The notes under the pieces: generated by a model
Told to the model about the DNA's origin: nothing
The model's database searches: none
What the model saw: only the letters and a program-made list of their open reading frames with translations
Virus record (IMG/VR): IMGVR_UViG_3300011435_000001
Coordinates: 8,648-72,647 of that record
Direction: 5' to 3' (one strand)
DNA from: a virus
Lineage: Duplodnaviria > Caudoviricetes
DNA: 64,000 nucleotides
Part shown: positions 3 through 58,249 of the stretch, one piece after another
Layout: each line of letters opens with the position of its first letter
How positions within the stretch are numbered: position 1 is the stretch's first letter
Made by a program: the position numbers and the translations under genes

Positions 3-371
3 ATGTGGAATCAGGTTGTGGACGGGCAAATTCTCACGCCCACACAGCGCCAGCAGTTGAGGGGCGCGTCCGAGTCCGTTCTAAAGGCACACACGCCCAC
101 GGAACGCATCAAGCAATATATCGAACTGGAAGAGCGCGCCGGTCTCTCACCCGGCACCGTGGTCCCCGTCGGATACCGGGAGCTGGTCTCCGGTGCGGCG
201 CCTGCTCCTGCCGCTTCCGCTGCGGCTGTCTCCGTTTCCGTGTCTCGCCCGACAGTCGAACAGAAGGCTGCCGCTCCGACGTATCCGAGCCTCGCCGCCG
301 TTCCAGCCAACGTGCAGTTTTTCAAGGGAACTGACGGACAACTCCGTGTCAATCCAAACTTCAAACCATAA
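3..371 (+). CDS. Probable virion protein, likely 5'-truncated by the window edge
   Basis: Open frame from the window edge, Ala/Pro-rich; its stop overlaps the ATG of the giant ORF (TAATG). Confidence 0.6.
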   Translation: MWNQVVDGQILTPTQRQQLRGASESVLKAHTPTERIKQYIELEERAGLSPGTVVPVGYRELVSGAAPAPAASAAAVSVSVSRPTVEQKAAAPTYPSLAAVPANVQFFKGTDGQLRVNPNFKP

Positions 372-3300
372 TGGCAATTCCTACACTGCCGACGGTTCCC
401 AACGACCCGTATGCGGGCGCCCCTCTTGCTGAGAGCGCTCTCGCACAGCAAGCCATCACGCCCGGCGCTCCGCTCCTTCCTCAGTATCAGGACGTCTACC
501 TGAACAGGAACCAGCCTGCTCCTGAACCCGCGGTTGTGGAACCCGTCGAAGGCGAAGACCCTTACGCGGGCGCGACTGTAGTCGAGCCGGAGGCCGACCC
601 TTACGCGGGCGCAGCTCCCGTCACCGCCGTCTACGGCTACGACATGGAGAAGCTGAGCGCGACGCCTGTCGAGGTGCTGAAGAAAGACAAGACGGAATTC
701 AATCCGGTAGATTTCTACGCGAAGAACACGGACGCACTTCTAAGAGACCCCGAGGCGTTGAAGAAAGTGGAAGCCGTTTTCGAAGAGCGCGACAAAGAAC
801 GCATGACGCCCTTCGGGCTCGTCAAGGCTGCCGTTACCGCTCCTCTCAACGCAGTCCTACACCCAATCGAGACCGCTAAGAAAACTGTCGGGGTCGCGAA
901 GGCCGGAGCCGAGTTTGTCGGAACGCTTCTCTCGGGCGCGAAGCAAGTCGTGGCCACCGGGGCGGAAGTCGCCGGGAATTTAGCCGAAGGCGATTTGCCG
1001 GGAGCGGCCAAAGGAATTTCTGAAGCCATCGCGGCGGCGGACCTCGCGCAACAGCGCTGGGTGACCATCGTCACGGACAAAGTCGGTCCATCTTTTGGCG
1101 TCATCCCGCGCGGGAAAACTGCACGCGAACGTCTGGCCTTCGACGCGGACTTCAAGCGCGCGGAACTCAAGGCCGCGGAAGGCAACGGTCAGCTCGCGAG
1201 CGACCTCGGCGCATCTCAAGACGAGCTGCGGTCTCTGGGAGTGAATCTCGACCCGGGCGCAATCGAAAGGTTGTCCGTCATCGAGGACCCGCTTTTCTTG
1301 GTGCCCGTTGGTTCTGCAATCGGCGTCACTGGCCGGGCCGGAAAATTTTTACTGGGCAAGGCCACCTCTCCCGCCACAGCGGAAGCCTTTGCCAAGGGCA
1401 TCAACAGCGCGATGGAGCGAGCCGCCGCTTGGCCGATTGCGAAGACCGGCGCAGCAGTTGAAAAAGCCGGAGCGCTTGCGGAGAAAGCCCCCAAACTCTT
1501 GAAGGGCGGAGTAGCACAGGGCGCAACCGGCGGCATGATTGCGTCCGCGATGCACGGGAACTTCATCCCTCTCGCCACCGCACTCGCCGCCCCGACCGCT
1601 TTGAAGTATGGCGGAAAAGCCGTCGCTGCCGTTGGCCGCGGAGTGCAGGCCGCCGCACCGGCTGTTGGTCGCGTCGCTGCGGAAACCGCAAAGGGCGCCG
1701 GAGAAGGCGCAGTTTTGTCCATGCCGCTTTTCCTCGGCTCGAACGAAGAGGAACGCGAGGGCCTGCTCGGCATGATTGCTGGCTCGGGCTTTTTGCGAGG
1801 CAGTCTCGCTGCTACTGGCGTGGCCAAGGGACTCGCTGAACGCGGAGAGCGACTCGCGGGACGCTCGGTCCAGAACAAGCTGGCCGCAAAGATTTTCGAA
1901 GCCGTCGACCAAGGCCCCGTCAAGGACTCCAAGGCATACGGCACCGACACCGCGCTGGATGCGGCGCACCAGCAGCACTCTGCCACGCTGTCTCGCGGGG
2001 AACAGTCCCTGCTGAGCACGGCGCGCGAGTTCTTCCGCGATGCTGGCGTTGAGATTTACGGTCTGGACAAGAACACGTTCGTGGCCAACGTCCCGAACGT
2101 CGCCGGGGCATCCGCGGCAGAGGGCTTTTTCCTGTCCCGGGGCGAGAGGCTCAATCCGGACGGCACACGCAGCCCGGTTTTGCAAGTTCTGTTGAACAAG
2201 GACACCAACGGACTCGGACATGAACTCTACCACGCCTTCAAAAGTCTTGACCCACAAGGAGCTACAGCTCTCGAGGCCCACATCACCAAAACTTGGACCC
2301 CCGAGGAACAAGCTTGGCTCTCAGACTCTTACAACTCCGCAATCAACGGCGGAAAACCTAAGTCCCAGTGGACAGTGCATCTCAATGAAAAACAGATTCT
2401 CGAAGAGGCTGCCGCCGAAGTCTTTGGGCGTGTCGTCAACGCCACCGACCTCAGCGGCGTCCGTCCCAGCATCGTCAAGCGCGCCAGCACTTTTGCCTCC
2501 ACCATCCTCGAAAAGATGGGCCATCCGCTTGCAGGGAAGGCCCTTCCGCAAGGACCCGGTGTCTCAGCCCTTGGCGTCCGACCGGGAACCGCTGAAGTAA
2601 AGGTTTCGCAGGATTTCCTGACCGACATCACCCGCCGGGTGAAGGAAGGCTCTCTGGGCGTCCCCACGCCCGGTGCTCCGCTCGAGGTTGGGGCGGGCCC
2701 TGCTGCCATTTCTAGGCGCCCGAGTGCGCCCCAGCCGTCAGCACCCCCGAAAGCGGCTGAGGCTCCGGCTACCCCTAAGCCCGCTACGCCCGCACCCCTT
2801 CCAGAGGCTGCCGCGGAGGTTCCTGTGCCAGCCGCCCCCGCGGCCCCTACGGCAGAGAACATCCGGGTCACCCCGAAGGAACAGGCCGACTTTGCCGCCG
2901 AGCGGTCCAAGGTCACCAACGCCGACCAAGCCCTAGCCGCCGCCGTCAAAAGCGGGGACCCGGCGCAGGTCACCCACGTCACGGCCATCAACGACTCGAT
3001 GGCGAACGGTCACGCCGTCGAGGTCGTCCACAAGGGCGTCATCCGCGAAGGCGGACCGACCCCCGAGAAGCCTGTGGGACGCGGTGAACGACGCGCCGAG
3101 CAGGCCGAAGCCTACGTCGCCGAGGCAATGGGCGCGGTGCCCGACTCAGTGCGCGAACTGCACCAGAAGCTTTTCTTCGGCACGCGCTGGCTCAAGGCTG
3201 GCAAACAGCTCACGGCGCGGAGTCTGGACAAGGCCCTCGCGAACGTGAAGAACGCTGCGGACATGTCCGCTGGCAAAGTCACGCTGCCTTACGAGGTTGA

Positions 3301-6300
3301 CGCGGCGGGAAAGCTGACGGAGGCGGGCTGGGCGGAAGTTGTGCAGGACTTGAAAGACTATTGGTCCAACCAAGACCGCGGCTTCCGCGGGGACGGCAAA
3401 GCGCTGACTCCCGAAACCCGCACGCGCGACGTCGGGCAGAGCATTCCTCCCGAGGACCCGCGCGGACCTGCGGCGCTGATTTCCACGGAGCGCACGGACT
3501 TTCTGAATCTGGTGCAGGGGCTCAACATTCCGGAGACGGTGCGGGGCCAGAAGAAGGGCGTGATTCCCGGCAACGTCAAGGGACAGCTATTGGCGGAAGC
3601 ACAAGGCAAGAAGCCAGCGAAGCCCGCTGGTTTCACCGAAGCCGACGTGCAGGCGAAAACCTACAAGCCCATCGAGGGTGTAGGAGTGCGCAGCATCGCG
3701 GAAGTCAACCCTCTCCGAAACGATTTACGCGCCAAGGGAGCGCCCGTTGAAAAACTCATCGAAGTCACCGAGAACATCAACGTCAAGAATATCGAGTCCG
3801 TCACTCCGCGCCCCGACGTCACCGGGCGGGGCGGCTCCACGGACATCACGCGCGCGGGTTTCTCAGCGAGACTGGCGGAGAGGTTTCCGGTCAAGGAGCC
3901 CCAGAGCAGCTTTTCTCCCGCAGCAGACTTTGAGAAAAGTCTGGACCCGGTCAAGATGGCGGCAATCCGCACCAAGGGTGGACAGATTTTCACGGGCGCG
4001 TTTCACGGAGAGGCGTATCTGAACCTCGCGGACGCCGTTGGGCGCGGAGAGTTCAAGGAAAAGTTGCCGGAGGGATTCAAGAGTCTGACTGACCTGCTCG
4101 ACTCTGTGATGGGTGGAGAGAAGTTTGATTTCATCGAGGACGGCTTCGTGACCGAGAGCGGAAAATACCTGAACCGCAAAGAGGCCTTCGAGCACGGCAA
4201 GAAAATTGGCCAGCTCAAGGCGGGATACGGTGAGGCGACGCGCAAGGGGCAGTTCGAGAAGGAAGGCGTTCTCGAGTCTGACGAGTTCAACCGAGGGAAA
4301 AGTTTTTCTCCCGCCACCGAGAAGGGGAAAGAGTTCGCCAAGCAGGGCTACGAGTTCACCTTCGATGTGGACGAGCTGGGCGGACGACTGGTGCATGTCA
4401 ACAAAGACGGCCAGCGGGTCGGGTTGGTGGAGTCCGTCCCGGAAGGCGACAAAAAAGCTGAAGTGTCGATGGCCTTCGTGACCCCCGAAGAGCGGGGCAA
4501 GGGCTTGGCTGAGGCGATGTATCGCGAGCTGCTCACCAAGCTGAAGGCTGACGGAATTGAACTGGTCAGCGGGCTCGCGGTGTCACCAGAGCCAATCGCA
4601 ATTCGAAAGAAAATCTTCGGCAGCTTTGAGAGCCTCGCCACCAAGAAATCCGGTGAGAGCGTGGGACCTGTGTCCGTGGAGGAAGCACTCGCCGGTCTGA
4701 CCAAGCTCCGGAAGGGCTTGTTTCCCCCGTTCCCCGCCGTCGACGTGGTTAACAGAATCACGGAAGAGAGCAAGTTTTCCATCAGCCGGGAGAAAGAGAA
4801 AGAGGTCGCGCAGGGTCTATTTGATAGGGGGCTGTTGGCCCACGAGCCCGTAGGCCGACTGACCAAGTCGCCCGTGACGGGGGCATTGTGGATTTCACCC
4901 GACGGAGACCTTTTCCAAGCTGGGTCGATGGGTAACGGTCACGAGTCGTGGGCGATGGATTACATTGTCGGTGGGCTCACCGACAAACTAACGTCCCCGC
5001 TGGGGATTCTTCCGGGAGCCCGAAATGTCCTCGGAACCGCGCTGGCCAAACGAAAAGGATGGCTCCCGTCGTGGGTCGACCGCACCTCTTCGGCAGACTT
5101 GGGTATCTATATAGACGGGAAGCCGAACGCAAAACAGCGGGCGGCTCTTGAGGACTTCGCGTTTGACAGCAAGCTCGCGGTGCTGAACCGCTCGAACGAC
5201 AAGGTCGCCATCTCCAGCACCGAGGAGTTTCTGGAGAGGCGGAACTACGGCAAGGGGAAATTCTCCATCAGCGCGAGCCCAGAGGTCAAATCCTCCCTCG
5301 ACAAGGTCCTCGCCGGAGAACAAGCTGGCGAGACATTCACGTTGAACGGCAGACTTTTCAACCCGGGCGACCGCAAGCTGGACGTGGTCACGCTGGCCAG
5401 CGAAAACTTTCCTCCCGACAAAATCACGCCGGAGGCGATTCAAGCTTTCGTCGACAAGTATCCCAACCTCGCACGCAACCCCGACGTTGTCGCCGGAGTG
5501 TTCAAGCTGGACAATGGTCTCGTCTCGGCGGACCTGAACGTGGTGGTGGACCAAGCCAAGCGCAAGGAATCCCTCGCGTTTGCCAAGGAAAACAATCAGG
5601 AAGCCATCTTCGATTTAGTCAAGGGTGAGGTCATCAACACGGGCGGAACCGGAGAGTCGAGGCTCAAGAGCCCCAAAGACGTGGCGGTTGCCGCAGCACT
5701 CCTGTCAGGTGAATTCAGCGGTGGACCTCCCGTTCGCCGCAAGGAGCCAAAGACCGGCCCGGTAAAACAATTTCTCGGGTCCGCCAAAGAACTGTTTCAA
5801 GACCTGTCCGAAGACGTGACGGAATCTGCGAAAGATTTCTTCGAAGAGATTGCCGACTTCGGGCCGACAATCAAGGGGCGAGAAGCCGACCTCCAAAAGG
5901 AGCTTGCGGCAGCGATGGAGGCGAGGTATCCGAAACTGTCAGAGGTTCCGGAGCCGACGCTTACTCAGAAATCTGTCGAAGACGTGGACTGGAACGAGGT
6001 CCGACGGAAAATTCAGGACTTGCCGGAGGAAGAGTATCGGGCAATTTTCGGAGAACAGCCCCGGGTCACCGTGGAAGGCTTGGCGGAGTCGCTGATGCTG
6101 GACCCCGAGAAGGCTCCAAATTCTTATCCGGCGGAAGAGCGCTCGGTGCTTCGACAGGTTTTTCAGATGGGTCGAGAACAGCTACAGGACCGGGGAGAGT
6201 CTCCGACCTCATTCTCCGTTCGCCGTAAAGAACCGAAGCGCGACAAGCAAGGCCGACCGTTGACCGAAGAGGGCCTCGTGGATTACGAGAGGCTATACAA

Positions 6301-9300
6301 GGAGAAGGTCGCGGCGGAGAGGGCAGCGGAGGCGAAAGAGGCCAAGGCGAAGCCCTCCAAAAAATATCTCGTGCCCGCGGCTCAGAAACCGCCCAAGGAC
6401 AAGCCCACGGGTTGGATTCTCCCGGACGGAGAATACGTCCCGATTAACACAGAGTTTCACCAAGACTGGCTCGGGGAGAACCGAGAGCGAATCAACAAAG
6501 ACTTTGGGACCAACTTTGGCGAGTTCGTTTTTACCGAAGACCGTCAGCAGGCTCTCAACAAGGGCTTCGTTCGCGTCCGAGACCGGGGGGGAGACCTCAT
6601 CGTCGAGCTGCACAAGGACTTTTTCAAGGGGAAGACCAAGAACGCCGTCAAAGAACTTCTGGCGGAGCACGCGGGAGAGCTGAACCGAGTTTCTGTTTCT
6701 CTCCTGAGCGACGAGGGGCAAGTTGTGGACTCCGTTTCCGCACGCCTTTTCGACTCTAAGAATCCAAGAGATGCCGCCCTTTCGATGTTGGACAAGCTGA
6801 ACCCAACAGCAGGGGTTTCGAAGAAAGGCCCTTCTGCAATCCAACGCGCCCGAGCGATGGGCGGAGAGGAATCTTTCTCTCCCGCACTGGCTGGCTCCGA
6901 GCCCAGCCGGGCCTCGCGGGAAAAAGCCGCGAAGGCTTGGAAAGAGCTGGGCACTGAGTCTCCCTACTTCCAAAAGTGGTTTGGCAAGTCGGAGGTCGTG
7001 GACCCCTACGCCCCCGACCAGCCGCTGGTTGTCTATCACGGCACCACGCACGAGTTCACGGAGTTTACCAAGGAGCGCTCCAACATCGAAAACGATTTCG
7101 GTCAGGGCTTCTATTTTTCCAGCGAGCCACAAGAGGTCAGCAAGAACTACGCGGGCGAAGGGCCGGACTTGACCTCGAGAATCGAGCGACGCGCGGAAGA
7201 GCTTTACAACCAAGACGGGGAACTGACCACAGAGGGAGCGCGGGCGCAGGCAGTCAAAGAAGTCAAGGGCACGCACGAGGGCGCGGTCAAGCCTGCCTAC
7301 CTAGCCATCAAGCGGCCTTTCCGCGTCGGCGACAAAGTCAGCGGGCGGGGAGAAACTGTTCTAGAGATGAATGAGCGCGGCACAGGCACGCTTGACAAGT
7401 TTTTGGCGAACCTCGAGCGCAACGCCAACCGATACGACAACACCAAGGCGGCGGAAGGTGTGGCGGAGATTCAGGAGAAGGCGAATTATGAATCCATCGG
7501 AGCGAAAGAGCTGGTGGACGCCATTCGGGACAGCGAAAGCTTCAACGATGCGAACGACGAAAGAGGAGATTTTGCCACGACGGAGATGATTCGGCAGACC
7601 ATTGAGGACTCCGGGTTCGACGGCATCATCGACGAGACGGTGTCTGACAAGTTCCCGCACATGATTTCGCAGGGCGACACGATTCACTACATCGCCTTCA
7701 AGCCCGAGCAGATTAAATCCACGACGGGCAACGTCGGCACTTTCCGCAAGACTAATCCGGACATCCGTTTTTCGGCGAAACTCCCAACCGACAAGGAAGT
7801 GTCCGACGCACTCTTCGTGAACAAGCGCCCCTACGTCGGAGCGCATCGCGACCTCAAGCCCGGCACACCCGTCGGACTGCGCATCGACATTCCCGCCTTC
7901 ACGCAGCACGGCGTCTACGTCATCACGGTTCACGAGAAGGCAAGCGGTGGTAGCGTGGGCAAGCGCATCGGCCACGACAGCGTCGCTACCGTCGACAACC
8001 CGACATTTTTCAGCAAGGAATCCGGCGCCATCAAAATCAAAGAGGGCGCCCCAAAGTTTCCGATTGCGACTGTCGAGGGAGAATTTAATCCCGCACGCGA
8101 AGTGCCGAAGGCGGGCGGAGAGTGGACCGAGGTCGGCTTCAATCCTGTCAAGCACTCCTACTTCTACGAGAAGGGGACCGAGAAGCCTGTGGTGGGTGGC
8201 GAGCAGGCGGTGAGCGCGGGCAACAGCGTGTTCGTGAAGAACGCGGAGTTCGGAGACAAAAAAGATTTCGCTTTCAGCGCCGCCCCTAAAAAAGTCGAGC
8301 GCGAGACAGGCAAGGGCGGGCAGAAGTTTTTCCCGCAGGGCACGCCAGAGTTCAACGCCTACGCCGAGAACAAGATTGCCAAGAGCAAAGAATTTCCCGA
8401 GGCCTTCCCGCTCGAGTTCCGGAAGGATGAGAACGGAAATTATCTGGCGCAGTGGGACGGTGACGTGCTCCCTGCCGCGAAGCCATACAACCTGCTCAAG
8501 TCAGACCTCGCGGAGAAGTCCGGCTCGAAAGAAAAGTTCCTCGACGCTCTCGGAACGAAGTTGGTCAAGGAATACCGCGAAGCCAAGAAGAACCCGGAGA
8601 TTGCTGTCGGCGAGCACTGGTATTCCATCTTCCGCGAGAAGGTCGGCAAGGTCCTCGGTGACGACACGAAACTTTTCGCTGAGCTGTTGGGAGCGACGTC
8701 GCCTCAGCAGGCCGTCGGGCCGAACTTCAAGGACGCGCTCGGTGCTTACAACCAATTTAAGCGCGGGGCCTACGACGCGATGATTGAGAAGTATCGCGAA
8801 GGCAAAAAGAAATTCTTCGACGGGGACCTCGCGGAGTTCACAGAGGCCACGGGCAAGAAGGGCAAGAAAGCAGACTACGCTGCGTTCATGAGCTGGTGGC
8901 AGAACAAGCACAACCTGCTACCGACAAAAGCTGACGGTAAAAAGTTTGGGATGAACTCCCGCGCTGTGATGAAGGTCCTTGACCGCTCGTGGCTCGAGGG
9001 AGTGCAGGGACCAAAGACTCCGAACTTCACGGGCAACCTGTCCGGGACAACCTTCAAGGCCACGATTGACGTTTGGGCCATGCGCGCCCTGTCGCGACTC
9101 GCCGGAGAAGATTCCGGTAAGCCGTGGCGGGTTCAAGCCGCAAACGAGTCCGGCGTGTCGGACCCGGATTTCTATTTCGGGCAGGACGCCTTCCAGAAGG
9201 CAGCCGACGAAATCGGCATCAAGGCCGACGCACTCCAAGCGATTCTCTGGTTCGCAGAAAAAGACCGATGGGAGAAGAACGGCTGGACCGGGGCGGCAGG

Positions 9301-9466
9301 CAAGGCGAAGTCCGACTACAACACGCTTTTGGACCGCACGACGAAGACGCCTGAGGGCTTTCTGGACCTTGCAGACATTGCACCCGACGAGGTGAAACCC
9401 AAGGCCAAGAAGGGTGCTGCAAAAGTGGCAGCCCAGCTCGAACTGAGCGACATTAAGGGAAAATGA
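371..9466 (+). CDS. Giant (3031 aa) polyvalent internal-virion/ejection-like protein with zincin, GNAT, ADP-ribosyltransferase-like and DNA-glycosylase-like modules
   Basis: HELYH...EEAAAEVF zincin motif; GNAT-like VTPEERGKGLAEAMY; ART-like FQKWFGKS..PLVVYHGT..GFYFSS..EQIKS; position at the end of the virion module; coding-like codon bias throughout. Confidence 0.85.
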   Translation: MAIPTLPTVPNDPYAGAPLAESALAQQAITPGAPLLPQYQDVYLNRNQPAPEPAVVEPVEGEDPYAGATVVEPEADPYAGAAPVTAVYGYDMEKLSATPVEVLKKDKTEFNPVDFYAKNTDALLRDPEALKKVEAVFEERDKERMTPFGLVKAAVTAPLNAVLHPIETAKKTVGVAKAGAEFVGTLLSGAKQVVATGAEVAGNLAEGDLPGAAKGISEAIAAADLAQQRWVTIVTDKVGPSFGVIPRGKTARERLAFDADFKRAELKAAEGNGQLASDLGASQDELRSLGVNLDPGAIERLSVIEDPLFLVPVGSAIGVTGRAGKFLLGKATSPATAEAFAKGINSAMERAAAWPIAKTGAAVEKAGALAEKAPKLLKGGVAQGATGGMIASAMHGNFIPLATALAAPTALKYGGKAVAAVGRGVQAAAPAVGRVAAETAKGAGEGAVLSMPLFLGSNEEEREGLLGMIAGSGFLRGSLAATGVAKGLAERGERLAGRSVQNKLAAKIFEAVDQGPVKDSKAYGTDTALDAAHQQHSATLSRGEQSLLSTAREFFRDAGVEIYGLDKNTFVANVPNVAGASAAEGFFLSRGERLNPDGTRSPVLQVLLNKDTNGLGHELYHAFKSLDPQGATALEAHITKTWTPEEQAWLSDSYNSAINGGKPKSQWTVHLNEKQILEEAAAEVFGRVVNATDLSGVRPSIVKRASTFASTILEKMGHPLAGKALPQGPGVSALGVRPGTAEVKVSQDFLTDITRRVKEGSLGVPTPGAPLEVGAGPAAISRRPSAPQPSAPPKAAEAPATPKPATPAPLPEAAAEVPVPAAPAAPTAENIRVTPKEQADFAAERSKVTNADQALAAAVKSGDPAQVTHVTAINDSMANGHAVEVVHKGVIREGGPTPEKPVGRGERRAEQAEAYVAEAMGAVPDSVRELHQKLFFGTRWLKAGKQLTARSLDKALANVKNAADMSAGKVTLPYEVDAAGKLTEAGWAEVVQDLKDYWSNQDRGFRGDGKALTPETRTRDVGQSIPPEDPRGPAALISTERTDFLNLVQGLNIPETVRGQKKGVIPGNVKGQLLAEAQGKKPAKPAGFTEADVQAKTYKPIEGVGVRSIAEVNPLRNDLRAKGAPVEKLIEVTENINVKNIESVTPRPDVTGRGGSTDITRAGFSARLAERFPVKEPQSSFSPAADFEKSLDPVKMAAIRTKGGQIFTGAFHGEAYLNLADAVGRGEFKEKLPEGFKSLTDLLDSVMGGEKFDFIEDGFVTESGKYLNRKEAFEHGKKIGQLKAGYGEATRKGQFEKEGVLESDEFNRGKSFSPATEKGKEFAKQGYEFTFDVDELGGRLVHVNKDGQRVGLVESVPEGDKKAEVSMAFVTPEERGKGLAEAMYRELLTKLKADGIELVSGLAVSPEPIAIRKKIFGSFESLATKKSGESVGPVSVEEALAGLTKLRKGLFPPFPAVDVVNRITEESKFSISREKEKEVAQGLFDRGLLAHEPVGRLTKSPVTGALWISPDGDLFQAGSMGNGHESWAMDYIVGGLTDKLTSPLGILPGARNVLGTALAKRKGWLPSWVDRTSSADLGIYIDGKPNAKQRAALEDFAFDSKLAVLNRSNDKVAISSTEEFLERRNYGKGKFSISASPEVKSSLDKVLAGEQAGETFTLNGRLFNPGDRKLDVVTLASENFPPDKITPEAIQAFVDKYPNLARNPDVVAGVFKLDNGLVSADLNVVVDQAKRKESLAFAKENNQEAIFDLVKGEVINTGGTGESRLKSPKDVAVAAALLSGEFSGGPPVRRKEPKTGPVKQFLGSAKELFQDLSEDVTESAKDFFEEIADFGPTIKGREADLQKELAAAMEARYPKLSEVPEPTLTQKSVEDVDWNEVRRKIQDLPEEEYRAIFGEQPRVTVEGLAESLMLDPEKAPNSYPAEERSVLRQVFQMGREQLQDRGESPTSFSVRRKEPKRDKQGRPLTEEGLVDYERLYKEKVAAERAAEAKEAKAKPSKKYLVPAAQKPPKDKPTGWILPDGEYVPINTEFHQDWLGENRERINKDFGTNFGEFVFTEDRQQALNKGFVRVRDRGGDLIVELHKDFFKGKTKNAVKELLAEHAGELNRVSVSLLSDEGQVVDSVSARLFDSKNPRDAALSMLDKLNPTAGVSKKGPSAIQRARAMGGEESFSPALAGSEPSRASREKAAKAWKELGTESPYFQKWFGKSEVVDPYAPDQPLVVYHGTTHEFTEFTKERSNIENDFGQGFYFSSEPQEVSKNYAGEGPDLTSRIERRAEELYNQDGELTTEGARAQAVKEVKGTHEGAVKPAYLAIKRPFRVGDKVSGRGETVLEMNERGTGTLDKFLANLERNANRYDNTKAAEGVAEIQEKANYESIGAKELVDAIRDSESFNDANDERGDFATTEMIRQTIEDSGFDGIIDETVSDKFPHMISQGDTIHYIAFKPEQIKSTTGNVGTFRKTNPDIRFSAKLPTDKEVSDALFVNKRPYVGAHRDLKPGTPVGLRIDIPAFTQHGVYVITVHEKASGGSVGKRIGHDSVATVDNPTFFSKESGAIKIKEGAPKFPIATVEGEFNPAREVPKAGGEWTEVGFNPVKHSYFYEKGTEKPVVGGEQAVSAGNSVFVKNAEFGDKKDFAFSAAPKKVERETGKGGQKFFPQGTPEFNAYAENKIAKSKEFPEAFPLEFRKDENGNYLAQWDGDVLPAAKPYNLLKSDLAEKSGSKEKFLDALGTKLVKEYREAKKNPEIAVGEHWYSIFREKVGKVLGDDTKLFAELLGATSPQQAVGPNFKDALGAYNQFKRGAYDAMIEKYREGKKKFFDGDLAEFTEATGKKGKKADYAAFMSWWQNKHNLLPTKADGKKFGMNSRAVMKVLDRSWLEGVQGPKTPNFTGNLSGTTFKATIDVWAMRALSRLAGEDSGKPWRVQAANESGVSDPDFYFGQDAFQKAADEIGIKADALQAILWFAEKDRWEKNGWTGAAGKAKSDYNTLLDRTTKTPEGFLDLADIAPDEVKPKAKKGAAKVAAQLELSDIKGK

Positions 9467-19896: not shown

Positions 19897-20288
19897 TTGA
19901 GAGACCCCGGCGGGACTTCCACCCACTTCCCGTCAGCGTCTAGGACCTCGACCTTCAAGAGCTCATCCTTGGTTTCGTTGATGACGGTTTGCTCTAGCGT
20001 CTCTTCCATCTCGATTTCATATTTTTTGAGCGCCAGCCAAAACCTCATTTTTGGCGTGGCCAGCAGTCGTTTGAATGCCGACGCCTTGTTGTCTGCTTGC
20101 GAACGGGAGTCGGAGGCCCGGCCCATCGCCCCGGACTCACGGTGAATAATCAGAACGCCTGAGGCCACCTTGTTCTTGGCCTGCCCGCCTTTGCCGCTGC
20201 CACAAAAGTAGGACACATCGAAATCTTTTCGCGTAGCGAGAGTGATTTTCTGGCGGGTGTCTTCTTTGGGCTGGTTGATGATTTTCAT
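19893..20288 (-). CDS. Stand-alone RF-1-domain (GGQ) peptidyl-tRNA hydrolase-like protein
   Basis: FCGSGKGGQAKNKVASGVLIIH...DSRSQADNKASAFKRL. Confidence 0.85.
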   Translation of the reverse strand: MKIINQPKEDTRQKITLATRKDFDVSYFCGSGKGGQAKNKVASGVLIIHRESGAMGRASDSRSQADNKASAFKRLLATPKMRFWLALKKYEIEMEETLEQTVINETKDELLKVEVLDADGKWVEVPPGSLK

Positions 20289-20992
20289 TTGGCGGCGTTC
20301 TTCTTGAAGCTCGCGCGCAGCTTCGCGATGATTTGGACGTGCGCTGCGTGGACTGCCTGACGCGAGACGCCCCGGGCCCGCGCAATGTCGGCCATGCTGA
20401 TTTTGTCGTTGTAGATTTTCCGGAGCAGCACCTTCTCTGCCGTGGTCAACTCGCAGCGGCACTTCTTGAGAGCCTCGAGGTTCAGGCCCAGCTCTTCCTT
20501 CTCCATCACGACTTCATCGGTGGAGGGCGCGGAGTCCACGGCGGGCGTGAACTTCTGCGGCGCGCGGGTGCTTTCGCCATCGTGCGTCGTGACCGTTTCC
20601 TCCGCGTATTGCGTGTAGGTCGGAAAAACATCCGCGTGCGAGGAGGGCTCGACGGTGTTCTTCGATTTCCACAGGCCCGCGAGCGCCCCCTTCAAAAAGG
20701 GCATCAGGTAGCGGGTGAAACGGTTGCCGCGCTCCGGGTCAAACCTGTCTATCGCATTCATCAGCGCAGAATTCGCGGCTGAAATCACTTCGTCGTCCGG
20801 AAGACGCCCACGATTTTGACGCCGGGCGAATCGGGCAGCGAATAGCAAATGGTTTCGAATGAGAAACTCCCGAGACTCAGCGTTGCCCTTTTTCGCTTTG
20901 GTGAAGAGTTCTTTTTCTTCTTCCGGCGTGGTGAGTTTGAATCGCAGGTCTTCATTTGCCCGGTAGTAGTTGCTGTTGGTCCCGTCGCTCAT
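20285..20992 (-). CDS. Sigma-70-family RNA polymerase sigma factor
   Basis: EEEKELF, IRNHL, LMNAIDRFDPERGNRFTRY (region 2), SMADIARARGVSRQAV (region 4 HTH). Confidence 0.88.
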   Translation of the reverse strand: MSDGTNSNYYRANEDLRFKLTTPEEEKELFTKAKKGNAESREFLIRNHLLFAARFARRQNRGRLPDDEVISAANSALMNAIDRFDPERGNRFTRYLMPFLKGALAGLWKSKNTVEPSSHADVFPTYTQYAEETVTTHDGESTRAPQKFTPAVDSAPSTDEVVMEKEELGLNLEALKKCRCELTTAEKVLLRKIYNDKISMADIARARGVSRQAVHAAHVQIIAKLRASFKKNAAK

Positions 20993-43173: not shown

Positions 43174-43515
43174 ATGAGTGCGCGACTAGCGGCGCAGGAG
43201 GCCCACCGTGACTCCGCAGTAGAGACCCGCGTAAAAGAGCTGGCCCTCCAGTGGGTTGCCGCCCTCAACGACAGCGTGGAGAAGGCCTTCAACTCGGAGT
43301 GGCCTGTGGAGTCCGTCTCCGTCGCATCCAACCAGCTTGAGGTCGGCTCAACAAAGACGCCCTTTGAGGACGTGATAACGCTGGCTGCGGACCGTGTGAC
43401 GTCGCACTTCCTAACCCAAAAGGGGACCCCCGGGTTCAACGCTTGGAAGCATGTAAGCAAATATGGCTGGGTTTCCGTTGAAGTGGTTTGGGGCACCCCG
43501 CCGAAAGCAACATGA
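43174..43515 (+). CDS. Hypothetical protein
   Basis: Overlap coupling to the recombinase. Confidence 0.55.
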   Translation: MSARLAAQEAHRDSAVETRVKELALQWVAALNDSVEKAFNSEWPVESVSVASNQLEVGSTKTPFEDVITLAADRVTSHFLTQKGTPGFNAWKHVSKYGWVSVEVVWGTPPKAT

Positions 43516-44228
43516 AAGTTTTCGCCTACCTTCGCGTCAGCACCAAGGAACAACTGGACGGCGGCGGATTTGAACGCCAGCTCGAGACCATCAAGTCACT
43601 CTGCGCGCACCGCGGCTGGACCATCGCCCGAGCCCCCTTCCGCGACCAGCAAAGTGGCGGGACGGAATTCGAAGGACGCGCCGGGCTGCAAGAAATTCTC
43701 GCCCTCGCTGGCGGGGACAACGCCCTCGGCATTGATACCGTCGTGGTGGAAAACGCCTCTCGCATTGCGCGCGACCTGATGGTGCAGGAGATTTTTCTGA
43801 GTGAGTGCCGCAAGAGACAAATCAAAGTCGTAGCCGCCGACTGCGGCGAGGAACTCGTCATGGCGGGTGCGGACCCCACGCGGGTTCTGATTCGACAGAT
43901 TCTCGGTGCCTTGGCCCAGTGGGAAAAATCCCAGACCGTCTTGAAGCTGCAAGCGGGGCGGCGCAAGAAGGCGCGCGAGACTGGGGTGCCCTGCGGTGGT
44001 CCCGTGCCCTACGGAAAGAACCCCGGAGAACTGGCGGTCATTGCTGACATTTGGAAACTCCGCAAGGCGGGCAAGTCGATGCGAGACATCGCGAATAAAA
44101 TGCAGGAACTCGGTTACCCGGCGCCCGCGGGAAAAAACTGGTATGGCGTCACGGTGCTACAGATTTTACGGCGCGAAGAGAACCGGCGCTCCGCTGAACT
44201 CAGGTTCTCAATGGACAACGACCAATGA
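43512..44228 (+). CDS. Serine recombinase (resolvase/invertase family) with a C-terminal HTH
   Basis: FAYLRVST (catalytic Ser), QLETI, VVENASRIARD, PYG...SMRDIAN...W. Confidence 0.9.
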   Translation: MKVFAYLRVSTKEQLDGGGFERQLETIKSLCAHRGWTIARAPFRDQQSGGTEFEGRAGLQEILALAGGDNALGIDTVVVENASRIARDLMVQEIFLSECRKRQIKVVAADCGEELVMAGADPTRVLIRQILGALAQWEKSQTVLKLQAGRRKKARETGVPCGGPVPYGKNPGELAVIADIWKLRKAGKSMRDIANKMQELGYPAPAGKNWYGVTVLQILRREENRRSAELRFSMDNDQ

Positions 44229-53353: not shown

Positions 53354-53381
53354 GTGCAGTTAAAATACGAACCGTGTGCCT

Positions 53382-54716
53382 ATGCCCGACATCACTACTC
53401 CGCCCGCTCCTGACCTAGCCTCCATCCCACCCGGGGTGAGCCTCAACCCAGACCCCGCCGCCGTCGCCGATACCGGCGCCGCGCTGGACGCCCTTTTCAA
53501 GCCCATCGACGTTCCCGAGACCCCGGAACCCAGACCAATTGTGCCCACGCCCGCGGCGCCTCCGGCTGAACCGCCGAAGCCCGTGGCCGGAGCACCCGTC
53601 GTCCCCGAGCTGCGACCCGGAGTTCCAGCCCTGCCCGGGCTGCCCGTCGCCCCTGCCGCTCCCGTCGTCACTCCCGCCGCGCCGGTCGTCCCTGAGCCGG
53701 TGAAGGACGAGTTCGATGCCGTGCAGCTCCCGCCGCACACCAAGTCGGAAGTTGCTCAGTCTTTCGACAAGTTGAAGCAGACCTCTCGCGACCGCCTCGC
53801 CGCGCTTGCCAAGGAGCGCGACGAAGCCGCGGCCCGCGCCAAGGAACTCGAAAGCCGACCGGCTGTCGACCCGAAGGTCGAGGCTGAGCTGAAAGAGCTG
53901 CGCGAGTTTCGCCAGAAGATGGACGTGGAAGCTGACCCGACTTTCAAGGAATACATCCAAGAGAGTCAGGCCAACGACACCGCCATCTGGACCAAGCTGA
54001 AAGAGGCCGGAGCGAACGACGCGACGCTCGAGAAGATGAAGTCCATCGGGACGAAGGAACTCGACTGGGAAATCATCCTCGAGAAACTTCCGCCGGTCAC
54101 CCGGCGCTACGTCGAGAATAAGCTCGCCGTGAACGAGGACCTGCACGACCAGCGCGCTCGCGCCATCGAGGCCGCGAAAAGCAACGCGTCCGAATTCCTC
54201 GCCGAGCGCGAGAAGTCGCAGACGCAGGACGAGCTGGCCCACTACGCGCGCGCGGAGGAACACTTCGGCAAGGTGTCCACGCAGTTGCCGTGGTTCCAAA
54301 TCCAGAAGGTCGAAGCGACTGCGACGCCCGAACAGCGCGCCGCCATCGAAGCGGAGAACAAGTTTTACCTCGCCACCCGTGACCAAGTCACGAAGATGTT
54401 GAAGGACCCGTCTCCCGAGATGCGCTCCATCGCCGCCCTCGGCTACGCACAGATGCTGCGGTTGCAGGAAGAGATTCCCGCGCTCCAAGCGGAGCACGCC
54501 GCCGAGAAGAAAGGGCTGGCCGACGAAGTCGCGAAGCTCACGGCGCAAATCAAGGAGAAGGACGAGTTCATCGCCCGACTCAAGGGGGCCTCTCGCACCG
54601 TTCTTCGCGAGGGCACCGCGCCCGCTCCCGGCGGCGCAGCCGCTCAGCCCACGATTCACGAACACGGCTCAGTCGCTATTGACCGGCTTCGAGCCGAACA
54701 AACGGCGGGCGCGTGA
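53382..54716 (+). CDS. Capsid scaffolding protein
   Basis: Pro-rich N-terminus, long acidic coiled coil, upstream of the capsid gene. Confidence 0.7.
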   Translation: MPDITTPPAPDLASIPPGVSLNPDPAAVADTGAALDALFKPIDVPETPEPRPIVPTPAAPPAEPPKPVAGAPVVPELRPGVPALPGLPVAPAAPVVTPAAPVVPEPVKDEFDAVQLPPHTKSEVAQSFDKLKQTSRDRLAALAKERDEAAARAKELESRPAVDPKVEAELKELREFRQKMDVEADPTFKEYIQESQANDTAIWTKLKEAGANDATLEKMKSIGTKELDWEIILEKLPPVTRRYVENKLAVNEDLHDQRARAIEAAKSNASEFLAEREKSQTQDELAHYARAEEHFGKVSTQLPWFQIQKVEATATPEQRAAIEAENKFYLATRDQVTKMLKDPSPEMRSIAALGYAQMLRLQEEIPALQAEHAAEKKGLADEVAKLTAQIKEKDEFIARLKGASRTVLREGTAPAPGGAAAQPTIHEHGSVAIDRLRAEQTAGA

Positions 54717-56968: not shown

Positions 56969-58249
56969 GTGGGAGACTGCATTACACCGGCACAAATTTC
57001 TGATATTGCCCAGAAGGATACCCAGCGCTTGGTAGGCGCTATCGCTAAGACGTTGGCTGCCAACGCCCCGTTCATGAATGTTATTTCGGGCGGAGTTTTT
57101 CCGTCCGGCACTTCTGACGAAATCCGCACCAGCGTCCAGCTCCAAGCTGCGCCCGGCGACTCTCTGGCTCTGCCCGAGTTCGTCTGCGACACCGACCTCT
57201 GTGGGACTCAAGGCCATCAGGACTTGACGGACGCCATCAACTTCGTCGTGAAGCTCGAATCGAAACGTGGTTTCGGTCCGCGCGTCTGCGTGAAGAAAGG
57301 CTACTCTGCCTTCAAGACCAGCTACCTCGCCTCTGAGGACTCGCTGAAGAAACTCGTCACGCAGTATATCAACTCCGACATCCGCGCTCAGCTTTACCTG
57401 CGCTCGGCCTCGAAGTTCACTGCTGTTGCCGGTTACGATTTCAACTCGCTGTTCACCGGCGGGACTGAGACCGACATCGGTGTGAAGTTCGCGCCCATCC
57501 TGCCCACCGGCCCGATGAGCTTCAAGGCTCTTCACTACATCGCCCGCTACATCAAGGAGAACTTGTTCGCCGAGATGTTCGACGCTGGCGACAAGGGCAG
57601 CCCGCACTTCCGGGTCATCGCCTCCGCCGACCAGATTGAGCTTTTCCGAGCTGAATCCGGCGTCAAGGACGTCCTCCAGAGCTACGTCACCGGTGGCTAC
57701 AAGCAGGGAGAACTCTCCCTCGCTGGCTACTCGTGGGAAACCGCTCCCGCCTACCGCGGCCTCGCCTTCGGTATCGACCAGCGTCCTCTGCGCGCCACAG
57801 GCTTCAAGGCCAACGGCACGCTGAACCTCGTCGACCCCGTGACGATTGTCACGAACGCGACCCGCAACACCGCTTACGCCAAGCCGAATCCGAGCTGGCT
57901 CACTGCCGACTACGAGGTTTTGTTCCTCTTGGCCGACATGTCCTTCGAGCGTCTCGTCCCCGAGCGCTACGTCGGTGAAGGCTCGTTCAAGTTCGCGCCC
58001 CAGCTCTACATGGGCGAACTCGAGTGGCACTACCAAATCGACAACGACTGCAACGTCTACGGCGATTTCGGTTGGCACAAATACCAAATCATCCGCGCCT
58101 ACAAGCCGATTCGGCCCCAGTTCGTGGTCCCGATTCTGTATCGGCGCTGCACCGCTGACCTCGGCCTGCCCGACTGCGCTGTTCCGTCCAGCTCCAGCTA
58201 CACTGGTTCTGACGCGTTCACCACGGTTGGTGTGACCTGCGAAGCCTAA
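56969..58249 (+). CDS. Major capsid protein
   Basis: 426 aa after the scaffold; strongly biased codon usage; own promoter and a strong downstream hairpin; GTG start. Confidence 0.8.
   Translation: MGDCITPAQISDIAQKDTQRLVGAIAKTLAANAPFMNVISGGVFPSGTSDEIRTSVQLQAAPGDSLALPEFVCDTDLCGTQGHQDLTDAINFVVKLESKRGFGPRVCVKKGYSAFKTSYLASEDSLKKLVTQYINSDIRAQLYLRSASKFTAVAGYDFNSLFTGGTETDIGVKFAPILPTGPMSFKALHYIARYIKENLFAEMFDAGDKGSPHFRVIASADQIELFRAESGVKDVLQSYVTGGYKQGELSLAGYSWETAPAYRGLAFGIDQRPLRATGFKANGTLNLVDPVTIVTNATRNTAYAKPNPSWLTADYEVLFLLADMSFERLVPERYVGEGSFKFAPQLYMGELEWHYQIDNDCNVYGDFGWHKYQIIRAYKPIRPQFVVPILYRRCTADLGLPDCAVPSSSSYTGSDAFTTVGVTCEA

Follow-up and report, generated by a model that had tools for sequence, protein, structure and literature searches.

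A 64,000-nucleotide (nt) stretch of a virus of the class Caudoviricetes (IMG/VR record IMGVR_UViG_3300011435_000001, positions 8,648 to 72,647), referred to here as the window, carries close to its start the gene of a giant polyvalent protein of 3031 amino acids (aa), P0001. The middle part of this protein is an array of modules, and a short motif built around an aromatic residue, Phe-Ser (FS) in P0001, stands at the joints. Alignment with 73 relatives shows that the joints are the borders of units exchanged among relatives, and that a protein uses one version of the motif at nearly all of its joints, the version depending on the lineage. Cleavage at the junctions is likely, and with modest confidence we favour the reading that P0001 is a cassette polyprotein, the junctions of which are cut by its own built-in metallopeptidase (MPTase).

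Thousands of phages and conjugative elements encode polyvalent proteins. Iyer, Burroughs, Anand, de Souza and Aravind predicted in 2017 that MPTase domains process them by autoproteolytic release, and these proteins were proposed to be delivered with the DNA (PMC5512222). The splitting of polyvalent proteins into effectors, although predicted since 2017, has never been demonstrated. To this known class and its predicted processing, the present analysis adds a defined junction motif. A junction code, a candidate protease on the same chain and a set of natural variants (FS, FLP, [FY]L[TS], FMP and FQP) make the prediction directly testable. In addition, the junctions supply exact module borders for the cloning of many unknown anti-host cassettes.

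Junctions at the borders of exchanged modules

The relatives were collected by a database search (60 homologues) and two IMG/VR scans (63 loci), and dereplication gave a set of 74 giant proteins, namely P0001 and its 73 relatives. BLASTP of P0001 against the relatives yields one collinear block over aa 1-1164, seen in P0002-P0032, and another over the last ~400 aa. Between these conserved ends the similarity is broken into separate blocks, which are present, absent or reordered depending on the relative. When every relative is cut at the motif that it carries itself, the pieces fall into module families whose sizes match from clade to clade.

P0001 contains 12 FS dipeptides, all of which lie within aa 1164-2635, with none earlier than aa 1164 (Table 1). 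The ten FS linkers listed in the earlier note are all present, each starting one codon upstream of the F positions given here. The two further FS are found within domains, at aa 2249 (GFYFSSEP, in the ADP-ribosyltransferase (ART) domain) and at aa 2547 (NPTFFSKE, in the gp82-like domain). Each of the ten junction FS has between 7 and 40 internal alignment ends no more than 6 residues away (BLASTP, 73 relatives), while the two intradomain FS have none. Overall, 37% of alignment ends fall within the 5.1% of the protein that surrounds FS. Of the 400 dipeptides, none is more enriched than FS where homology breaks off: the enrichment is 9.3-fold in the 14 closest proteins, where 280 of 664 ends lie within 5 residues, and 4.2-fold in a set of 33 proteins. 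Compared with the whole array, the ten residues that flank a joint on either side are more hydrophilic.

The earlier note had placed the FS linkers at the boundaries of modules of ~110-340 aa and had suggested that the protein may be a cassette polyprotein. The placement and the cassette idea hold up: break points pile up at all ten linkers and at neither intradomain FS, and the modules run from 131 to 397 aa, so that the sizes were judged about right. Homologues gain, lose and reorder the middle modules, homology breaks at FS, and the alignment of homologues that had been put forward as a check shows gain and loss at the FS linkers.

Structure prediction agrees with the junctions in part. In a first AlphaFold2 (AF2) model, confidence is high up to aa 1164 and the predicted local distance difference test score (pLDDT) falls below 50 from aa 1165 onwards. 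In a second model, confidence between the gp82-like part and the C-terminal domain drops only over aa 2634-2650 (pLDDT <50), a stretch that starts at the FS of aa 2635 and separates two confidently folded parts. Thus, the expected coincidence of predicted domain borders with FS is borne out by these two collapses, while the junctions at aa 1948, 2169 and 2467 lie in low-pLDDT stretches of the second model, which is of low confidence over aa ~1940-2240 and 2417-2550.

The junction motif across lineages

In distant relatives, other words stand at the junctions. A large group has F-L-P, another has [FY]-L-[TSP], and the most distant proteins have F-M-P, F-Q-P or F-F-P. One and the same module has FSP ahead of it in the FS clade, FLP in the FLP clade, and FQP or FMP in others, and homology ends a few residues from the motif, on its outer side. 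In an unbiased count of aromatic tripeptides, FLP, FMP and FSP are the top over-represented ones: many relatives have 5-8 copies of FLP against ~0.5 expected, L047 has 8 FMP (0.11 expected, p 4e-13) and P0043 has 11 FSP (0.51 expected, p 1e-11).

A non-circular test of the borders made use of module cores alone (GNAT, module D, module H, the C-terminal module and domain X; Table 1) as queries, with the flanks aligned only afterwards. F or Y was found at 130 of 135 aligned junction positions. At 123 of these 130, the second residue was that of the same protein's first junction, against a shuffled mean of 51, and none of 5000 shuffles reached 123. The aromatic residue is kept at homologous borders down to ~25-30% identity.

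The first junction reads AG-[FY]-x-[PTVA] in 71 proteins, after ...TDITRAG, with LQP as the single exception; in P0001, it directly follows the end of domain X (...STDITRAG). Its second position is never acidic in the 71 proteins, being S, L, M, Q, F, R or K. At the module D border (junction 2), FSP, FLP, FLT, FQP or FMP is found depending on the clade, at the module H border (junction 5) FS, FL, YLP, FMP or FSP, and at the aligned border of junction 10 FS, FLP, YL or FM. At junction 3, both the C-terminal border of module D and the N-terminal border of GNAT align across clades, and at junction 8 homologues diverge in sequence past ...ARAMGGEES-FS. The tail at junction 9, NPDIR-[FY]-[SMQ]-P, also follows the ART modules of other polyvalent proteins. 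Of the 159 such internal modules compared, 75 carry F, Y or H at the corresponding position, in the patterns R[FY][SMQ]P and L[YH]Q, which partly supports a wider occurrence of such junctions. FS as such is the form that the junction mark takes in one lineage: Ser is not constant, the aromatic residue is invariant, and the motif is really [FY]-x-[PVTA].

In a quick tree of the N-terminal region, the 14 FS proteins form one well-supported clade nested among FLP lineages. Because of this nesting, all joints of the FS clade can be taken to have switched from Leu to Ser together. The codons at the junctions vary: Phe is encoded by TTC or TTT, and Ser by TCA, TCT, TCC, TCG or AGC, which belong to both of its codon boxes. 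Such variation places the constraint at the protein level, with selection acting on the peptide and not on the DNA. A DNA-level recombination signal was ruled out on the same grounds. Of the proposal that FS marks recombination points, what stands is that exchanged units end there.

It might be argued that FS is a by-product without function: a recombination scar, a DNA signal, chance or the composition of the linkers, which are rich in S, G, K and E. The number of FS in P0001 is indeed not beyond chance (12 against 7.6 expected, shuffle p = 0.076), and this count was discarded as evidence on its own. A mere by-product is nevertheless hardly credible given the different codons at the ten sites, with Ser from both TCN and AGC, the aromatic residue at nearly all tested borders, the second residue that switches in concert, and the tripeptide enrichments in relatives.

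A candidate reader of the junctions

The conserved N-terminal region contains a zincin-like domain (Table 1), in which all 29 aligned proteins have H617, H621, Y654 and E679, with E or D at residue 618. Its AF2 model, which was built with a 30-sequence alignment, has a pLDDT of ~80-92 over aa 496-765 and consists of a beta-sheet, the HExxH helix and a helix bearing E679. A VIA-align structural search of 48,161 chains with the region of aa ~513-761 returned zincins only. The best matches were a Certhrax/lethal factor (LF)-type domain (Z 6.7), the catalytic domain of anthrax LF (Z 6.3, 159 residues), PPEP-2 (Z 6.2, 148 of 185 residues) and PPEP-3 (Z 6.0), followed by weaker matches to neprilysin, PepO, PprI and ArdC (Z 3.6 for ArdC). 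Taken with the invariant signature, these matches allow aa ~500-765 to be read as a zincin, but not to be placed in a named family.

The presence of this domain goes with that of the motif. Among 144 other long proteins from the searches, a match to a hidden Markov model (HMM) of the zincin domain goes with [FY]xP enrichment (8 of 14 against 5 of 130, Fisher p 8e-7); FDP, a motif inside ART domains, was left out of this test. Two of the five exceptions have HExxH at the same relative position.

A uniform, lineage-specific motif requires one reader, without naming which. The cut could be made by a host protease or an unrecognised phage protease, with the zincin being an effector or acting on the N-terminal body only. 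We consider this unlikely. Iyer et al. do allow for MPTases as effectors (PMC5512222), and since most of the phage ORFs (open reading frames) are without a family assignment, a protease could be hidden among them. A host protease, however, would leave the differences between sister lineages at motif positions 2 and 3 unexplained unless the hosts differ likewise, and the zincin is the one conserved peptidase-like element, which co-occurs with the motif. As for a second phage enzyme, no other peptidase was recognised by Pfam or PHROGs in ~60 ORFs of the phage, among which most late ORFs have no family assignment. FS is not enriched across the other ORFs of the phage (59 against 47.6 expected), and is absent from ORFs 53376-54716 and 56969-58249. 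With FS unenriched elsewhere in the phage and no other peptidase recognised, a head-maturation protease like that of T4 or phiKZ is a less likely reader.

Proposed processing of the chain

For zincins of the thermolysin, lethal-factor and PPEP kind, it is usually the side chain at P1' that decides where they cut. An aromatic or hydrophobic residue is favoured there by lethal factor, and the PPEPs require Pro at P3'. The mechanism that we propose for P0001 is as follows. The chain consists of a conserved N-terminal body with the zincin-like domain, a variable array of eight cassettes and an HhH-GPD-like end module, with joints of the form x-F-S-[V/P/A]. A single reader, in all likelihood the built-in MPTase, would recognise the junction motif and cut every joint, probably just before the invariant aromatic residue, so that P1' would be Phe or Tyr and P3' often Pro. 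The products would be the N-terminal body of 121 kDa, nine proteins of 14-44 kDa and a leftover of 17 residues. The chain would be packaged in the virion and enter the host with the DNA; such carriage is suggested by the polyvalent family, by the location of the gene at the end of the late + strand block and by the near-absence of Cys. A shared junction code would let cassettes from phages of the same lineage be released correctly, and the correct release of any such cassette would explain why they are shuffled freely.

Self-cleavage between F and S by the Ser hydroxyl, as in Nup98, was rejected as a general mechanism, as relatives have Leu, Met or Gln in place of Ser at the same borders.

The junction code could have a second role. 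In bacteria, N-terminal Phe or Tyr is a primary N-degron for ClpS/ClpAP. If the cut falls before the aromatic residue, each released cassette would start with Phe or Tyr and have a non-acidic residue in second place. The code would then double as an N-degron that makes the cassettes short-lived, and the injected effectors (ADP-ribosylation, acetylation) would act only in the first minutes of infection. The lack of acidic second residues at the 71 first junctions is compatible with this idea and no proof of it, and we hold it to be improbable.

Several points weigh against a polyprotein cut by its own zincin. Firstly, the aromatic residue is missing at a small number of homologous borders (ALP, LLP, ILA), and AF2 did not resolve the junctions at aa 1948, 2169 and 2467, around which pLDDT is low throughout. 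The motif classes track phylogeny with ~5 changes on the tree, so the concerted signal rests on few independent events; similarly, the link between zincin and motif may, at least partly, reflect shared descent. Secondly, the assignment of the peptidase has its limits. The top VIA-align Z scores, 6.0-6.7, are middling by the tool's own notes, a Foldseek search of the N-terminal model against the PDB gave nothing at E <= 0.001 (the best rows were anthrax lethal factor, E 0.02), and the domain has no Pfam match, neither to MPTase-PolyVal nor to any peptidase family (E <= 0.1 to 1). One clade has H-D-x-x-H instead of H-E-x-x-H, and Asp at residue 618 would be an unusual catalytic base. Thirdly, packaging in the virion is something that we infer, and there are precedents for passage of the whole chain: phage N4 vRNAP has an MPTase and is packaged uncut, and plasmid ArdC/TraC1 carry an MPTase yet also travel uncut (PMC5512222).

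These precedents favour an alternative in which the motif is never cut and the ~330-kDa protein acts as one chain. The motif would then be a docking or handling peptide, held by domain X or by a partner in packaging or ejection, or else a hinge that eases the threading of the chain through portal and tail. Uniformity within each protein and co-evolution with a partner would be expected of a docking site as well, and no split versions of the giant genes were found downstream of them in 40-odd loci. Yet a motif at every joint of unrelated enzymes, low-confidence linkers and an intact zinc-peptidase signature look like the layout of a processed polyprotein, and an invariant aromatic residue followed by a small residue or Pro would suit a peptidase subsite better than a hinge. 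An uncut chain seems to us possible, although doubtful, and processing by the built-in zincin remains the reading that we favour.

Modules of P0001

The features of P0001 are listed in Table 1. The array consists of eight cassettes of 131-298 aa: one T4 Y16D-like, one GNAT, one ART, one gp82-like and four without an assigned function. Pfam families recognised in P0001 are ART-PolyVal (aa 2217-2458), GNAT (aa 1328-1404) and DUF7178 (aa 2836-2964); a fourth match, L5 gp82-like (aa 2525-2620), is below the cut-off.

Table 1. Features of P0001 with positions in the protein and in the window; for junctions, alignment ends are those within 6 aa of FS.
Feature	Position in P0001 (aa)	Position in window (nt)	Strand	Remarks
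Giant polyvalent protein gene P0001		371..9466	+	Open ORF, 3031 aa
Conserved N-terminal region	1-1163	371..3859	+	120.8 kDa, common to all relatives
Zincin-like metallopeptidase domain	496-765	1856..2665	+	
Zincin signature	H617-E-L-Y-H621; Y654; E679	2219-2233; 2330-2332; 2405-2407		
Pro/Ala-rich disordered linker	771-831	2681..2863	+	pLDDT <50, model residues 276-336
Conserved domain X	835-1163	2873..3859	+	pLDDT ~75-95, many invariant columns
Junction 1	F1164-S1165 (RAG-FS-A)	3860..3865	+	40 alignment ends
15-aa spacer ARLAERFPVKEPQSS	1166-1180	3866..3910	+	Between junctions 1 and 2
Junction 2	F1181-S1182 (SS-FS-P)	3911..3916	+	15 alignment ends
Module D	1183-1311	3917..4303	+	T4 Y16D-like (PF26092) domain
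Junction 3	F1312-S1313 (KS-FS-P)	4304..4309	+	21 alignment ends
Module F	1314-1468	4310..4774	+	GNAT acetyltransferase, Pfam PF00583
Junction 4	F1469-S1470 (SK-FS-I)	4775..4780	+	7 alignment ends; peak of 12 at aa 1472
Module U	1471-1630	4781..5260	+	No function assigned; rare among relatives
Junction 5	F1631-S1632 (GK-FS-I)	5261..5266	+	9 alignment ends
Module H	1633-1781	5267..5713	+	No function assigned; widespread
Junction 6	F1782-S1783 (GE-FS-G)	5714..5719	+	13 alignment ends
Module aa 1784-1947	1784-1947	5720..6211	+	No function assigned; no relative among 73 proteins
Junction 7	F1948-S1949 (TS-FS-V)	6212..6217	+	7 alignment ends; peak of 14 at aa 1950
Module C	1950-2168	6218..6874	+	Widespread; conserved TGWxLPDG...ALNKGFxRxR
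Junction 8	F2169-S2170 (ES-FS-P)	6875..6880	+	22 alignment ends
ART-PolyVal module	2171-2466	6881..7768	+	ADP-ribosyltransferase, Pfam PF18760
Junction 9	F2467-S2468 (DIR-FS-A)	7769..7774	+	7 alignment ends
gp82-like module	2469-2634	7775..8272	+	Mycobacteriophage L5 gp82-like
Junction 10	F2635-S2636 (FA-FS-A)	8273..8278	+	7 alignment ends
Conserved C-terminal module	2637-3031	8279..9463	+	DUF7178, HhH-GPD-like fold
Non-junction FS	2249; 2547	7115-7120; 8009-8014	+	0 alignment ends

No strong transmembrane segment was found in the N-terminal region, the best 19-residue hydropathy being 1.54. Its low-complexity N-terminus contains DPYAGA three times, at aa 12, 63 and 76 (nt 404-421, 557-574 and 596-613). 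Domain X includes a small Sm/SH3-like or Sm/WYL-like beta-barrel (window ~2950-3859, aa ~860-1163). The best VIA-align matches of this barrel are the WYL domains of PafBC, DriD, BrxR and CapW (Z 5.9-7.4 over ~80-89 residues), which bind ligands or single-stranded DNA. A search of 185,579 prokaryote species, each represented by one genome, brought up no relative of domain X (aa 840-1164).

Within the zincin region, an ORF of 126 codons in the +1 frame (2220..2600) starts with an ATG one base past the first His codon of HExxH. An overprinted gene was considered here and rejected, its extent not being kept in relatives (30-198 codons), and the ORF is probably a chance frame in GC-rich DNA.

Where P0001 has the spacer ARLAERFPVKEPQSS, relatives carry F-P-x-x-K-P-P-F-x5-S ahead of FS, and the spacer looks like a remnant, or deletion footprint, of the tail of a module found in relatives. 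The module of aa 1784-1947 opens with GGPP-VRRKEPK, a repeat of the start of module C, which comes after it. VRRKEPK thus stands after the FS of aa 1782 (past GGPP) and after that of aa 1948 (nt 5732-5752 and 6218-6238), and its two DNA copies are identical at 17 of 21 bases. From the sequence, this module looks to have been inserted into the head of module C. Given the 15-aa remnant (aa 1166-1180) and the duplicated VRRKEPK (aa 1788 and 1950), break points need not coincide exactly with FS.

The assignments of the remaining modules are of varying firmness. Module D matches the clusters of PF26092 with an atlas score of 0.85 and 199 shared features, and PF26092 is also precomputed on homologues. 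GNAT (E 4.9e-7, 30.5 bits against a cut-off of 20.7) and ART-PolyVal (E 2.7e-18, 67.5 bits against 31.2) are clear Pfam matches, the ART module having 9117 cluster representatives at E <= 0.001. The gp82-like module matches PF25735 at E 5.5e-4, below the cut-off, and phrog_586. Module U clusters solely with a segment of P0012, and module C has a weak atlas lead to LPD23; profile searches against PDB sequences gave no relative for modules D, C and H. Cassettes seen in relatives include a radical-SAM one in P0030 (aa 1760-1919), and in P0043 GNAT and ART-PolyVal are each flanked exactly by FSP sites (aa 1866, 2001 and 2164).

The C-terminal module belongs to DUF7178 (PF23802, E 3.7e-8) and is modelled with a pLDDT >90 over aa 2651-3004. 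Its part at aa ~2726-2983 (nt 8546-9319) matches the Tm1821 8-oxoguanine glycosylase (Z 8.8, 186 of 209 residues), ~15 other glycosylases, among them OGG1, EndoIII, MagIII, AlkA and MutY (Z 5.3-7.3), and also a queuine-salvage DUF2419 enzyme (Z 7.3). This model-based HhH-GPD match may give a putative function to DUF7178, which ends nearly every member of the family.

The phage and its genomic setting

The window is part of a 72,647-bp contig, the termini of which share a 123-bp repeat; the phage genome is, therefore, complete. The phage is uncultured; its phage nature is shown by genes for collagen-like tail fibres, a family-A DNA polymerase, helicases and an exonuclease. The giant gene is the last of a + strand block of late genes that crosses the contig ends, and it follows the tail-fibre genes. 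Amid these late genes, shortly before the giant gene and upstream of the window (contig 5064-6630), a 2OG-Fe(II)-oxygenase-like DUF6445 protein, a stand-alone GNAT and an HNH endonuclease are encoded. Elsewhere, the phage has a serine recombinase (resolvase and recombinase domains, E 1e-23; 43488-44228) and a sigma-70-type factor (20285-20992); the former suggests a temperate phage or an invertible element.

No close relative of the phage was found among 50,697 deposited phages. Megablast with 20 kb and tblastn with aa 1-1160 gave no match to known phages, and tblastn with aa 1001-3031 gave domain-level matches only, to the ART or gp82-like parts, at 25-38% identity. No informative cluster name exists for homologues of P0001.

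P0001 has no Cys in its 3031 aa. The 74 giant proteins together have 20 Cys in 164,952 aa, and 59 of the 74 have none at all, whereas Cys makes up 1.85% of the other ORFs of this phage. The avoidance of Cys extends even to the GNAT, ART and glycosylase-like modules. As an indirect pointer, the absence of Cys suggests passage of the protein in an unfolded state or via the periplasm.

Comparison with known systems

P0001 resembles the described polyvalent proteins (PMC5512222) in that unrelated effector enzymes are joined in one giant phage protein, and it shares their hallmark ART-PolyVal (PF18760), together with GNAT; its predicted zincin-like domain may correspond to their MPTase. The description of the class names no cleavage or linker motif (PMC5512222), whereas the P0001 family has [FY]-x-[PVTA], which is located at exchange borders and varies by lineage. 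In the literature searched, no description of a junction motif in polyvalent proteins was found. Unlike the MPTase hub domain of polyvalent proteins, the candidate peptidase of P0001 is undetected by the Pfam MPTase-PolyVal model.

Head-carried phage proteins that are processed at a short shared motif include T4 Alt and the internal proteins cut by gp21, and the inner-body proteins of phiKZ and SPN3US. In these phages, capsid and scaffold proteins carry the motif as well, and its reader is a head protease separate from the cargo. P0001 is similar to T4 Alt in having an ADP-ribosyltransferase effector and a short shared motif. It differs in that FS is unenriched outside P0001 and that no head protease is recognised among the ~60 ORFs scanned.

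The closest structural counterparts of the candidate protease are zincins of the M34 type (anthrax lethal factor, PPEP-2 and PPEP-3), which match aa ~513-761 over 148-160 residues. The order of the signature in P0001, HExxH followed by Tyr and Glu, is that of M34. The spacing between Tyr and Glu differs, however, and there is no match at the level of sequence, so the general zincin fold may suffice to account for the similarity. M34 enzymes read the primed side of their substrates, with an aromatic residue or Pro at P1' and, in PPEPs, Pro at P3'. Such reading would fit a cut before F in F-x-P.

A further parallel is found in the MARTX toxins of Vibrio, which have conserved ends and a swapped array of effectors. 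An in-chain cysteine protease, activated by inositol hexakisphosphate, cuts their unstructured linkers after Leu, and the modules are released inside the target cell. P0001 likewise has conserved ends that frame a changing array of effectors, and its modules are exchanged at sites in the linkers. In contrast to MARTX, it is devoid of Cys and so has no cysteine protease domain; any built-in protease must be of a non-cysteine class, and the candidate is the zincin-like domain. Moreover, the target of P0001 would be a bacterium, delivery would be by the virion, and the site is centred on an aromatic residue.

The polyproteins of RNA viruses are also cut at short junctions by a protease of their own (Q|G by picornavirus 3C, LQ|S by coronavirus Mpro), and the motif and the specificity of the protease co-vary by lineage. 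P0001 is similarly one chain with one embedded candidate protease and the same short motif at its joints. RNA-virus polyproteins are made up of replication and structural proteins that are essential and keep a fixed order, whereas the middle units of P0001 are accessory, shuffled and encoded by a double-stranded DNA phage. If the proposed processing is true, P0001 and its relatives would be a double-stranded DNA phage counterpart to the protease-plus-junction logic of RNA-virus polyproteins and MARTX toxins.

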